Origin: Methylomarinum sp.
GTDB lineage: Bacteria > Pseudomonadota > Gammaproteobacteria > Methylococcales > Methylomonadaceae
Direction: 5' to 3'
DNA: 64,000 nt
Assembly (NCBI GenBank): GCA_965277025.1
Contig: OZ255706.1
Coordinates: 3,893,504-3,957,503, forward strand
In this document: positions 9,001 to 12,000 of the stretch, piece by piece
Layout: the number at the start of each line of letters is the position of its first letter
Position numbering within the stretch: the stretch's first letter is position 1
Position numbers: made by a program

Positions 9001-12000
9001 GCAGGCGCTCCTTGTCTTTCAAGATCAAATCATAGGCATCAACATCATCCGCCTCCGCCTCGGTCGCTTTTTTGCCCATCTTGGGGTTAACCAGCCGTTT
9101 GCTTTTTTTGTCGATGGAAAAATAACCGTTATGAATCTGGTCAACATTCATGCCTGCCAGATAATCCTGATAGGTTTCTGGTAAAAATAAATCCTGCTGG
9201 ATTTCATTCAGTGCGGCTGAATATTCCTCTTCGAAAATCCTGGCGTATTCGCCTTTTTCATCGTCCCGGTCATAATCCCGATACCTGGCGACTTCATCAA
9301 TAAAAAACAGGGTTAATACCTTGATGCCCTGATGGAAAAGCGTTTGTTCCCTCTCAAAATGCGCTCTGACAGCCTCACGAATCTGAATCCGTCGTAGCGC
9401 GGTTTCATTGACATCACCCACAGCTTCCCCCGCCAGCAAACGGAGTCCATTGGTAAATTCCACAGTATCATTTATGGCGTTAATGTCGGCAATGACAAAG
9501 CCCCGGTATTGATCCAGCTCGCCCGACAACGCATACAAGTTATCGCCTTTTTTCAGTTTGCGCAGCACCCGTTTAATGCCACTGTTTTGCTTGATTTCCA
9601 TTTCAATTCGGGCCGTTGGCGCTTGTCTGGACACTTCGATGGATTCCAGATACAAATACGCATTCGTGCCGGAAAGCCCTTTGACCGAAATACCGCGTAC
9701 AGCAATCTTCTTGACCAGCTTCTGGTTATAGGCATCCAGCGCATCCAGCCGGTGGATTTTATGATGCCGGGTCTTATGCGTGGCGGAATAACGAAGCAGA
9801 AATAAAGGATTGAATTCTTTCAGCGAATCCAGTGTTTTCGCACCTTCCATTTTCTGCGGCTCATCCAGAATCAGAATCGGCCGATTGGCCTTGATCACAT
9901 CAATCGGACGGCGGCTCTGAAAATCGTCCAGTTCCTCATAAATCCGCCGGTTATCCTTGCCGCGGGCATTAAACGCCTGCACATTGATCACCATGATGTT
10001 GATCCCGGCATCAGAGGAAAAGCTTTCCAGATTATGTAATTGCTTCGAATTGTAAATAAAAAACCGCGCTTTCTTGTGATAATGCTCCAGAAAATGCTCG
10101 GCGGTAATTTCCAGTGATTTATACACGCCTTCCCGAATGGCAATACCGGGCACCACAATAATGAACTTGCTCCAGCCATAGCGCTGGTTCAGCTCAAAAA
10201 TACTTTTGATATAGCAATAGGTTTTACCCGTTCCTGTTTCCATCTCCACATCCAGATGGTACGGCGCAATCGCCAGCGCTTTTTTGCTGTAGGTCTTATC
10301 GACCACAAACCCGCCTTTTTTGAGGGTTTTAAACTCAGTTAAAGACTGGCTTTGCGGTAAGTTCTGCTGACGTTGCACCTGCTGGATATTGTCTAATAAC
10401 TGCTCAGGCGACAGGATAATCTCCGCATTCTTGAAACCGATTTCATCATCCAGGCGCTGTTGCTGGATTTTACCCGGATCAATCCGGTAGCCGAGCCTAA
10501 TAGTATTGGGTTGCCCTTCAAAACAATCCACCACAGCTTCTACGGCGCGGGTTTGGTAGGCTTGTTGTTTGAATTTGAGTTTCATGGATTATTCTCTTTT
10601 TTGACCACGAAAGACACGAAACAACACGAAAAGCACGAAATTTTTATTCGACTGCACTGTATGTAAATGACAATTTTCGTGTCGATTGTGCTTTTCGTTG
10701 TTCACAATACCAGTCTTGTTATGTCTGCTTTGGGGTAGGTTCCAAAATTTACAAGCAATCCGAGTTTTATTCCGCTTGCTTTCAAATAGTTAATTACCTG
10801 CGCCTTATGTTCTGGACCTATCTCCTTGACGGCTTTGAGTTCTACAATAATTTGATCATAACAAATAAGATCGGGCTTGTAGGTCTGTTGTAGTGGTTTG
10901 CCTTTATAGCTCAACTTTAGTTCCTGCTGCGCCTTAAACGGAATATTACGTTTGCTCAACTCTTGCTCAAGGCATTCCTGATAGATCGCTTCAAGAAAAC
11001 CACATCCCATTTCACGATAGACTTCAAAAATAGCACCTTGAATTTGATAGCATTCATTTTTAAGAATAATTTTTTCGTGTGGTTCGTGGTTCATTTGCCA
11101 TCTTTTCCTTCATTCTTTTTCACATTCCTGACGAACTGTCAAAAATTTCTTGACAGTTGCCTCCAGACTTAACTCACCTGAATATGAAGCTCTTTTTTTA
11201 ACCACGAAAGACACAAAAAGCACGAAAGGTTTATTCGGCTACGCCGAATGCAGTATTTTTTCGTGACTTTCGTGCTTTTCGTGGTTCATATTGTTTTTAT
11301 CTCAGTATGTGGTGACATCAGTTTAAAGATCTGTTCGACATTGATCTTGACCGCATCGCTGGCAAACCCGGCGTCACGGAATACCACCCGCAGCGGCTCC
11401 CGCCTGGCCAGTTCCTTACAAAACTCTTCGGTAATTTTGCCATCGGTTTCAAAACAGGCGGCCAGGGCGTTGCCATCGACGAAATACACCCGTAGGGGCA
11501 ATTCATGAATTGCCCCATTTGCCCCAATTTCCTCTTTTGTGATTGGCAAAGTCAAATCCACACCCCAGTCCAGCAAGACCTGAAACAGTAAATCTTCTGC
11601 GGTGCGCTCGGGTTTGATATTGTCGGTGTTGTTGAACAGATCGCCCTGGTTGATGGCATCCGGGCGGTAATAAACATCGACCATATTGCTGGAATCGACT
11701 TTGAGTACGCGGAAGCCGGTGTCTAATTTTTTGGACTGTACGGGCAATTCATGAATTGCCCCTACGATTTGTTTGCCGGCGCGGCGAATGCGTTCCTTGC
11801 TGATTTCGGCGATGGTTTTGTAACCGGCCTTGAACGCTTCGGATTTTTCATCACACGGTTCAGGCAGTTGCACCATGATGAATTTTCGCTTGCCGCCGTC
11901 TTCGGCGTTGAGTTGCATGACGGCGTGGGCGGTGGTGGCGGAGCCTGCGAAGAAGTCGAGGATAATGTCATTATCTTTAATTTTTGATACTTGCATCAAA

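Follow-up and report, generated by a model that had tools for sequence, protein, structure and literature searches.

A small nuclease gene between tandem-heptamer arms in a Methylomarinum mod-res operon looks like a member of an undescribed mobile DNA family

The window analysed here is a 64-kb stretch of a Methylomarinum sp. genome (contig OZ255706.1, positions 3,893,504 to 3,957,503), and all coordinates below are those of the window. Between the mod and res genes of a type III restriction–modification (R-M) system, the spacer at 10586-11285 is taken up entirely by a small GxxExxY-family gene, here called gene 2, and by five repeat arms, all on the minus strand. The arms are built from tandem units with the 7-nt core CACGAAA. 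A paralogue, gene 1, lies in the same window between arms of its own. With the same gene and the same repeat unit found across more than 15 phyla, the locus looks like a member of an undescribed family of mobile DNA.

Read in the direction of the genes, the occupied region opens at the stop codon of mod. This TGA (11288-11286) is directly followed on the gene-sense strand by ACCACGAAAAGCACGAAAGTCACGAAA, sits within ATGAACCAC in the same reading, and belongs to the arm tip ATGAAC. It begins a gene-less doublet immediately 3' of mod (11200..11288, minus strand), in which two 28-nt inverted arms of three units each enclose a 31-nt loop, the inverted arm lying at 11227-11200. The two arms are 82% complementary, and the computed RNA fold reaches -39 kcal/mol (z -7.6). 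A small hairpin, ATTCGGC-TAC-GCCGAAT, is found inside the loop at 11232-11250. Because the loop begins with AAAATACT, like the open reading frames (ORFs) of homologues, and carries TAAACC at its end before the arm, this upstream doublet may be a deletion derivative of a gene-bearing copy. A spacer of 105 nt (11095..11199, minus strand) then separates its inverted arm from the left arm of gene 2. It contains a 12-nt inverted repeat just upstream of gene 2 (11134-11158, the AACTGTCAAGAA / TTTTTGACAGTT region) and a purine-rich putative ribosome-binding region; a promoter and terminator scan of the spacer gave nothing above shuffled sequence.

Gene 2 itself (10702..11094, minus strand) encodes 130 amino acids. 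Its start codon lies in the left arm (11072..11094, minus strand), whose two units, ATGAACCACGAACCACACGAAAAAA, are translated as MNHEPHEK; the usual left arm among homologues has three units (MNHE-HE-HEK). The gene 2 stop TGA (10704-10702) continues into ACAACGAAAAGCACAATCGACACGAAAA and opens the inner arm of a downstream doublet (10674..10704, minus strand; TGAACAACGAAAAGCACAATCGACACGAAAA), which is degenerate and in the same sense. A loop follows, and then the outer inverted arm (10603..10640, minus strand), which has four irregularly spaced units and ends 17 nt short of the res ATG (10585). This degenerate doublet folds no better than chance (z -2.1). An earlier, sequence-only reading of the window had described the five arms, the two stop codons that open an arm (TGAAC) and the hairpin in the upstream doublet, and the present analysis confirms each of them.

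The arms stand out clearly from their surroundings. The window contains CACGAAA 23 times, compared with 12.2 ± 3.4 in shuffled sequence, and 11 of these 23 occurrences fall within 10606-11283. Regularly spaced CACGAA clusters of at least two units are confined to the two GxxExxY loci; the only other CACGAA pairs, at 21133 and 63340, are irregularly spaced, and no arms were found in the 64-kb window away from the two genes. Independently, TRF reported period 9 at 10606-10640 and 11259-11283, and period 10 at 3359-3377 and 3744-3770.

The outer arm can be compared with that of a near-identical strain (contig L282), whose sequence elsewhere equals the window except for one homopolymer base. Inside the arm at 10603-10640, L282 carries 95 nt more, bounded by heptamer units: the remainder of an inverted arm is followed by a spacer and then by another doublet. 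The loop of this extra doublet begins like the GxxExxY ORF, of which about 12 nt are kept after the arm. Because of these additional 95 nt, the four-unit arm of the window is probably a fusion produced by recombination between two like-oriented arms.

The upstream host gene, mod (11286..13307, minus strand; N6_N4_Mtase), contains in-frame insertions of repetitive extragenic palindromic (REP) sequences and is split by an in-frame stop after ...HIVEGP into ORFs of 75 and 544 amino acids, the N6_N4_Mtase part occupying 11286-12920. Since mod is interrupted in this way, the type III R-M system of the window is probably inactive. The downstream host gene, res (7469..10585, minus strand), has ResIII and RE_endonuc domains.

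The gene 2 product is a predicted PD-(D/E)XK nuclease of the RecB/Cas4-like type. It matches PF13366 (PDDEXK_3) with an E-value of 1.4e-44 and TIGR04256 (GxxExxY) with 2.5e-44, scoring 151.7 bits (cut-off 22) and 150.3 bits (cut-off 35) on the two family models; the gene 1 protein matches PF13366 at 2.7e-36 and TIGR04256 at 4.3e-39 and exceeds the same cut-offs of 22 and 35 with 124.9 and 133.5 bits. In both paralogues the catalytic motif set is intact, with E35 in the GxxExxY helix, D75, E85-x-K87 and Q99xxxY103, and residues E35, D75, K87, Q99 and Y103 are invariant among 60 sequences. An AlphaFold2 model of the gene 2 protein (pLDDT, predicted local distance difference test, 89.6) has the layout alpha-alpha-beta4-alpha-beta2, and the arm-encoded residues 1-6 are disordered in it. 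The best PDB folds, all with modest scores, are Cas4 SSO0001, lambda-exonuclease-like proteins and Hjc; the homing endonuclease I-Bth0305I (PDB 3r3p) was a weak match in the fold search. Searching the PDB by sequence gave no match, and for the two proteins PADLOC returned no family match above noise and PHROGs no meaningful match. The PF13366/TIGR04256 family is large, with 27,913 clusters at 50% identity (E <= 0.001).

Gene 1 (3382..3765, minus strand; 127 amino acids) lies between an sbcD-like and an sbcC-like gene and is 38% identical to gene 2 (tblastn 37.7%). It is bracketed by a single inverted pair of 30-nt arms made of CACGAAT units. The left arm (3744..3773, minus strand; AACCACGAATGAACACGAATAAACACGAAT, period 10) begins 10 nt after the sbcD stop and contains the start codon of gene 1; the right, inverted arm (3347..3376, minus strand; reverse complement AACCACTAATGAACACGAATAGACACGAAT) lies 5 nt past the gene 1 TGA and 9 nt before the sbcC ATG.

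Arms and gene travel together across phyla. Homologues with 75-85% identity to each of the two paralogues span more than 15 phyla, with hosts among the Gammaproteobacteria (Methylomonas), Desulfobacterota, Chlorobi, Planctomycetota, Nitrospirota (Nitrospira), Verrucomicrobiota, Kiritimatiellia, Bacteroidota and others. The arms were surveyed in 80 genomic loci of gene 2 relatives together with earlier loci, giving 86 genes from 83 loci, and they are present at all 86 genes. In total, 312 arms were counted in 1.22 Mb, compared with 3 in shuffled sequence, and 224 of them lie within 400 nt of the gene. The commonest layout is arm, gene and inverted arm (>G<; 38/86); a gene between two doublets (><G><) is seen in 11/86, and the layout of the window, with the gene followed by a full doublet, in 9/86. 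Several GxxExxY copies share one locus in L059 and L074. The tips fall into the types AACCAC...GTGGTT, GTCCAC...GTGGAC and TTCAC...GTGAA. In total, the element measures about 430 bp and is promoter-less, and a search of its content for insertion sequence (IS) functions found the 130-aa PD-(D/E)XK protein as the only ORF and no known transposase class. No paper containing the tandem-unit strings of the arms, and no description of the arms or of their link to GxxExxY genes, was found in the searched literature.

The start codon often lies inside the left arm among relatives as well, and the N-termini of homologues are then a translated arm of the matching dialect. Relatives of gene 2 begin with MNHE[RKT]HE[KR]HEK, which is ATGAACCACGAAAGACACGAAAAGCACGAAAA in translation, or sometimes with another frame of the same DNA, TTKDTKNTKE; relatives of gene 1 begin with M[DN]TNKHELL. 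The proposal of the sequence-only reading that each paralogue has its own repeat dialect is thus supported beyond the window too: gene 2 goes with CACGAAA at period 9 and gene 1 with CACGAAT at period 10, and the pairing holds in the N-termini of 120 homologues of each gene.

Within the gene 2 clade, sub-dialects can be distinguished, namely CGCGAAA, CACGGAA and a tip with GTCCAC replacing AACCAC. More distant members differ further: unit CGCGAAG with tip TTCACG in Sphingomonas, unit CACAGAGG with tip TTCACCAC in Bacteroides, and a single unit in Treponema. The left and right arms of an element always share the same core and the same tip, and the core CACGAAA is kept in 74 of the 86 elements despite protein divergence to 61-80% identity. 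When dialect and tip type were mapped on a protein tree of the 86 genes, built without the arm-encoded residues, 11 Fitch changes sufficed, compared with 27.8 after permutation (minimum 24). The arm dialect thus follows the protein clade, and the co-phylogeny anticipated by the sequence-only reading is borne out. Its further suggestion of enzyme-repeat co-evolution stands in so far as dialect tracks the protein tree. Recognition of the repeat by the enzyme does not follow: the ORF includes the left arm, so that physical linkage alone predicts the same co-phylogeny, whose weight is limited accordingly. Residue 19 gives one hint of direct read-out. It is Arg in L065, L079 and L083, the three proteins whose arms have CACGGAA, and Gln throughout those with CACGAAA or CGCGAAA (the other 82 of clade 2), so that Q19/R19 may correspond to A or G at core position 5.

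Two loci (L251, 3170-3470; L167, 3440-3800) hold head-to-tail arrays of six to eight solo arms in a single orientation. These arrays mix the 9-nt (TTTCGTG) and 10-nt (ATTCGTG) dialects, in strict alternation in L251. Both cassette types seem to use, or to leave footprints at, the same spots in these loci.

The cassette is a discrete insertion. At 61-85% amino acid identity, it occurs at differing junctions: mod|res in the window, hsdR|hsdM in L003, hsdS|hsdM in L008, many hsdS|hsdR junctions, and a methyltransferase|SLFN junction in L094. A Chlorobium copy likewise lies between hsdS and hsdM. In Methylomonas koyamae, hsdR ends in TGAtgat, the ATG of the cassette (arm, gene, arm) follows directly, and aaaggaaaaaaat leads from the cassette to the ATG of hsdM. 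In Sphingomonas parapaucimobilis, the fabD-fabG pair is split by a family member bearing tandem-unit inverted arms of its own, and S. paeninsulae has an empty spacer of 33 nt at that junction. The flanks are often a T-run and an A-run that extend the inverted repeat and do not form a direct repeat.

Placement at gene junctions is real. Neighbours are mostly co-oriented with the cassette (56/70 downstream, 60/72 upstream), and 32 of 71 clusters fit between two long co-oriented ORFs, one of which stops no more than about 50 nt from one tip while the next begins at most 80 nt from the opposite tip. From the overlaps at mod and gene 2, the sequence-only reading had suggested targeting of, or selection for, gene boundaries; targeting of stop codons is unproven and was rejected as an explanation of the overlaps. 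The arm tip has a stop built in, TGA where it reads ATGAAC and TAA where it reads TTTAAC; the sense arm is open in all three frames. Both overlaps in the window follow from this conserved tip. Across loci, the TGA tip is the end of a long ORF in 12 of 40 cases, which matches the roughly one in three expected by chance for an abutting ORF.

Arms also occur in large numbers without the gene. In Desulfobacter latus (L079), the doublet loops keep the first ~48 and the last ~40 nt of the ORF; because both ORF ends are retained, these doublets are internal-deletion derivatives of gene copies. Homologous doublets are dispersed at separate junctions in L042, and a pair of Pirellula loci with 97% identity is distinguished by indels of whole units (9 and 18 nt) and by the deletion of 122 nt from a loop. 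The arms thus recombine and change their unit number quickly. For a sample that does not depend on the gene, the exact three-unit arm was searched in IMG/VR and in metagenome contigs. IMG/VR yielded 45 stretches (426 kb) with an exact arm, and a GxxExxY gene in none of them. The contigs are prophage-like, with tail, terminase, holin, Mu-like transposase and integrase proteins; most of their arms are solo, share the orientation of the genes and fall precisely into the gaps that separate one ORF from the next. Among 150 exact arms from 120 metagenomic stretches, 20 adjoin a GxxExxY gene, and 99 have room for one and none present. Convergent arm pairs in the metagenome sample comprise 61 gene-less doublets and about 9 pairs of gene size, and the one cargo size that recurs between convergent arms is that of GxxExxY. 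The gene-less arms adjoin ordinary housekeeping genes; R-M genes account for 0 of 119 neighbour proteins.

The doublets derive from gene copies, directly so at one locus, and in the metagenome sample they are far more numerous than these. The arms persist where the gene is absent in cis, and they are a dispersed repeat family far larger than the local footprint of the gene family, as with REPINs or miniature inverted-repeat transposable elements (MITEs). The REPIN-like picture drawn from the window also fits the metagenome sample, with its predominance of gene-less doublets and their housekeeping neighbours. Around the genes the pairing of repeats with GxxExxY is complete; it fails for the gene-free prophage-like stretches and for about two-thirds of the metagenomic arms, which counts in part against the sequence-only reading.

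An inverted pair of arrays could be conserved as a DNA sequence or as a stem. In the latter case the arms would act in RNA, pairing in the operon transcript as a local hairpin or as a long-range stem around the ORF. Such a stem might be processed (e.g., by RNase III, as in ORF-bearing 23S rRNA intervening sequences) or control translation of the cassette or of the next cistron, and the U-free sense arm might serve as an unstructured leader before genes. The GxxExxY gene would then be a passenger or have an unrelated job, and movement would proceed by ordinary illegitimate or homologous recombination. The low folding energy of the upstream doublet agrees with this possibility, as do the co-orientation of cassettes with operons and their stop-to-start fit, the sense orientation, without exception, of the prophage-like solo arms in gaps just upstream of genes, the tolerance of a tandem-unit stem to gain and loss of units, and an unrelated PF05635 ('23S rRNA IVS protein', intervening sequence) gene with the same architecture and an 8-nt unit. 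However, if arms were kept merely for pairing, the 2-nt spacers between heptamers should pair as well. Spacer-base matches, out of seven, were 2.29 within the pairs of doublets and 2.44 after random re-pairing, and for gene-bearing pairs 2.52 and 2.36. No G-U bias was found among arm mismatches on either strand, including the sense strand. With no signal in spacer complementarity or in G-U bias, selection for a stem alone was rejected. In addition, the core is conserved across phyla, though pairing alone would permit drift; the downstream doublet of the window does not fold better than chance; Rfam gave only sub-threshold chance matches; and dispersed homologous doublets and head-to-tail pile-ups of arms would be left unexplained. 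A role of the arms in RNA is rather unlikely. The data fit arms that are arrays of putative binding sites for a factor travelling with the element, and because no other factor travels with it, the encoded protein is the candidate for reading the cores.

With moderate confidence, gene 2 and its arms are read here as one copy, accompanied by decayed copies, of a widespread selfish cassette. Such a cassette would consist of a PD-(D/E)XK gene of about 390 nt between terminal inverted arrays with the 7-nt core CACGAAA every 9 nt. It would occupy the narrow gap separating two co-transcribed genes of the host and read in the same direction as they do. Its start codon would lie in or beside the left arm, the arm tip would give a stop to the upstream gene, and an A-rich, Shine-Dalgarno-like stretch past the right tip would serve the downstream gene; because it brings these three signals, the host operon would still be readable through it. 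Loss of the ORF by internal deletion would leave hairpin doublets and solo arms, which would recombine, gain or lose 9-nt units and come to lie dispersed at ordinary intergenic sites. The nuclease would bind the heptamer arrays as sequence, presumably with one subunit per unit, and cut at or near them, thereby helping the element to move, or to be copied, in cis and in trans to further sites with arms, either by transposition or by homing with the 27-30-bp arms as homology. The full form of this proposal is more tentative, though possible: a stand-alone nuclease of 130 residues would mobilise its own arrays and thousands of gene-less doublets, as a second, independently evolved partnership of the RAYT/REPIN type (RAYT, REP-associated tyrosine transposase) driven by an enzyme class with no known stand-alone transposase or homing role, in more than 15 phyla and in prophages, with clade-specific dialects possibly set through residue 19 (Gln for A, Arg for G).

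Several observations weigh against the selfish-cassette reading. No target-site duplication was obtained. An all-against-all comparison of 280 loci for empty sites recovered orthologous junctions with different content and no precise empty site; the empty fabD-fabG site of S. paeninsulae belongs to a pair that is only 72% identical, which falls short of a precise empty site at high identity. The element is rare on plasmids, with 8 distant matches among 72,556, and it has no close relatives in phage records, where the sole match is a haloarchaeal virus at 33% identity, so that neither points to a vehicle of transfer between phyla. A cis-regulatory role would explain at least as simply why most arms have no gene beside them and why the prophage-like stretches carry solo arms and no GxxExxY gene. 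The fold is closer to RecB/Cas4/lambda-exonuclease end-processing enzymes than to site-specific endonucleases, and the correlation between Q19/R19 and the core rests on one clade, i.e., on one evolutionary event. To our knowledge, there is no stand-alone PD-(D/E)XK transposase. Finally, PF13366 is entered as 'unknown' in a survey (PMC3424549), apart from which the searched literature on PF13366/TIGR04256 holds passing mentions only, and no family member has a known nuclease or binding activity.

The genomic habitat of the cassette suggests another role. About 40% of the gene 2 relatives (clade 2) lie in R-M or defence operons and the rest in housekeeping operons. Downstream neighbours (of 70) include HsdR (13-14), HsdM (7) and N6_N4_Mtase (4), and upstream neighbours (of 72) include HsdS (15), ResIII (5), DUF4391 (4) and SNF2 (3). 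A widespread relative of gene 1 (clade-1 P0188) lies between methylase and SLFN/SNF2 genes. The neighbourhood of gene 2 in the window is a defence island (5019-7469 and 14977-18916), with a PDC-S06-type AAA_13 gene adjoining res, a Fic gene and a pair of DUF4391 and SNF2-helicase genes. GxxExxY could accordingly be an accessory nuclease of R-M and defence operons, with the heptamer arrays as its recognition or regulatory sites: arrays beside the gene would set the expression of the gene or of the downstream restriction subunit, and phage copies would be targets or decoys. The share of clade-2 genes in such operons, the context of P0188, the defence island of the window and the identical arms in temperate-phage contigs are in favour of this role. 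Against it stand the lack of a PADLOC match above noise, the many copies in housekeeping operons (fabD|fabG, radA, HrcA|ferrochelatase), the position of gene 1 in an sbcDC-like pair, the pseudogene state of mod, and gene-less arms with no R-M association. Moreover, any hitchhiker on often-transferred DNA would also be expected to be enriched in defence islands. A defence function of this kind is improbable.

It is very improbable that the doublets are attC-like sites and that the gene and its doublet together form a cassette of the integron type, mobilised by a tyrosine recombinase whose gene lies elsewhere: many tips (...TTTAAC / GTTAAA...) do resemble attC core sites, some loci (L042, L079) resemble doublet-gene-doublet-gene arrays that include toxin-antitoxin genes, and the ><G>< form is a gene flanked by two homologous doublets, but the commonest form has the gene within the hairpin, GxxExxY is the sole recurrent cargo size, attC sites are conserved in structure and not as tandem heptamers, and a monophyletic group of 14 (GTCCAC...GTGGAC) and the Sphingomonas and Bacteroides members (TTCAC...GTGAA) lack the AAC/GTT triplets by which attC is defined, on which ground this candidate was rejected. 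No integron integrase was present among the scanned ORFs of the window, and no systematic IntI search of the loci was made.

Two observations were made beside these questions. A gene of 418 amino acids with SLFN_AlbA_2/HATPase_c_4 domains recurs at 85-95% amino acid identity (L094, 3491-4747; L102, L110 and L111, 3501-4757) and is promiscuous in its context, following ParE, CcdB, a UvrD-like helicase or a GxxExxY cassette. Its TGA continues into a solo arm in L094 and L111, where the arm provides the ATG of the SNF2 gene that follows; L102 and L110 have no arm at this place. On the minus strand of the window, a giant ORF of 5391 amino acids (37250-53425) contains nested repeats with periods of 21 nt, 27 nt, 288/360 nt and ~1.65 kb.

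The link to a defined repeat of conserved sequence provides the PF13366/TIGR04256 family, which is annotated in very many genomes, with a first concrete testable activity, namely the binding or cutting of CACGAAA-type arrays. It also defines a class of bacterial repeats, comprising doublets, solo arms and arm pile-ups, which break assemblies, yield odd N-terminal peptides such as HEKHEKHEK or TKDTKNTK, and sit within essential and defence operons without destroying them. Should the nuclease prove to move the arms, it would represent a novel type of enzyme of mobile DNA, one whose dialects are programmable. Should the arms work at the RNA level instead, they would be a portable module for adding a cistron to an operon.

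Among known systems, the nearest analogue of the cassette is REPIN-RAYT and, more loosely, the pairing of IS elements with MITEs; it is like them in outline and is not one of them. In the REPIN-RAYT system, REP doublets are mobilised by a single-copy REP-associated tyrosine transposase, and the system is described as mostly vertically inherited (PMC3116915; bioRxiv 10.1101/2022.05.22.493013). The cassette shares with it a gene flanked by its own repeat type, inverted doublets and a repeat type that tracks the protein clade; in the metagenome sample, gene-less copies dispersed intergenically also outnumber the gene-sized pairs. On the other hand, the cassette protein is a PD-(D/E)XK nuclease and not an HUH/Y1 transposase, both genes of the window matching PF13366 only, and its arms are three 7-nt cores at a period of 9-10 nt instead of REP hairpins. 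Its gene often lies within the doublet and takes its start codon from an arm; the gene moves with its arms from one phylum to another instead of being inherited vertically; and gene copies favour operon junctions, especially those of R-M operons. The window has a true RAYT as well (Y1_Tnp / REP_Tyr_transpos match), a separate gene at 13253-13822 with different REPs. The REP palindrome GGGCAATTCATGAATTGCCC occurs four times (11496, 11742, 13149 and 13532), with a partial copy at 13516, all at most 2 kb from the RAYT; the copies lie within ORFs, namely mod and the RAYT, whose reading frame translates them as GAIHELP.

IS elements and MITEs resemble the cassette in their terminal inverted repeats, in internal-deletion derivatives that keep the ends (as in L079), in pile-ups of ends, and in presence or absence at an otherwise conserved gene junction. 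In contrast to them, the cassette has no DDE, serine, tyrosine or HUH transposase and no target duplication was found; its ends are tandem-unit arrays, and it rides host operons as a promoter-less unit of about 430 bp. Correia elements of Neisseria are about 100-150 bp long, with inverted ends; they are intergenic and co-transcribed, form mRNA hairpins, and most copies lack a transposase of their own. The cassette differs from them in its cognate gene-bearing form, its tandem-heptamer ends and its range of many phyla.

Free-standing homing endonuclease genes offer a further comparison, as I-Ssp6803I is a homing endonuclease of the PD-(D/E)XK fold. Here too, a small nuclease gene lies between conserved genes and has spread between unrelated genomes, and the cassette arms of 27-30 bp could be homology for copying into arm-bearing sites. 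Unlike homing systems, the cassette has no intron or intein and no known cleavage site, and homing endonuclease genes lack flanking inverted repeat arrays and abundant gene-less derivatives. The ORF-bearing intervening sequences of 23S rRNA (PF05635) also have a small ORF bracketed by inverted repeats, although the protein has another fold and the host of the cassette is an mRNA operon and not rRNA. Genes of PF05635 share operons with GxxExxY genes (L096). In L110 (620-1125), a PF05635 gene lies between inverted arrays of 8-nt units (GTCAGGAG), about three upstream and 13 downstream. Because this unrelated gene shows the same design, the placing of a gene between tandem-unit arms may be more general than one protein family.

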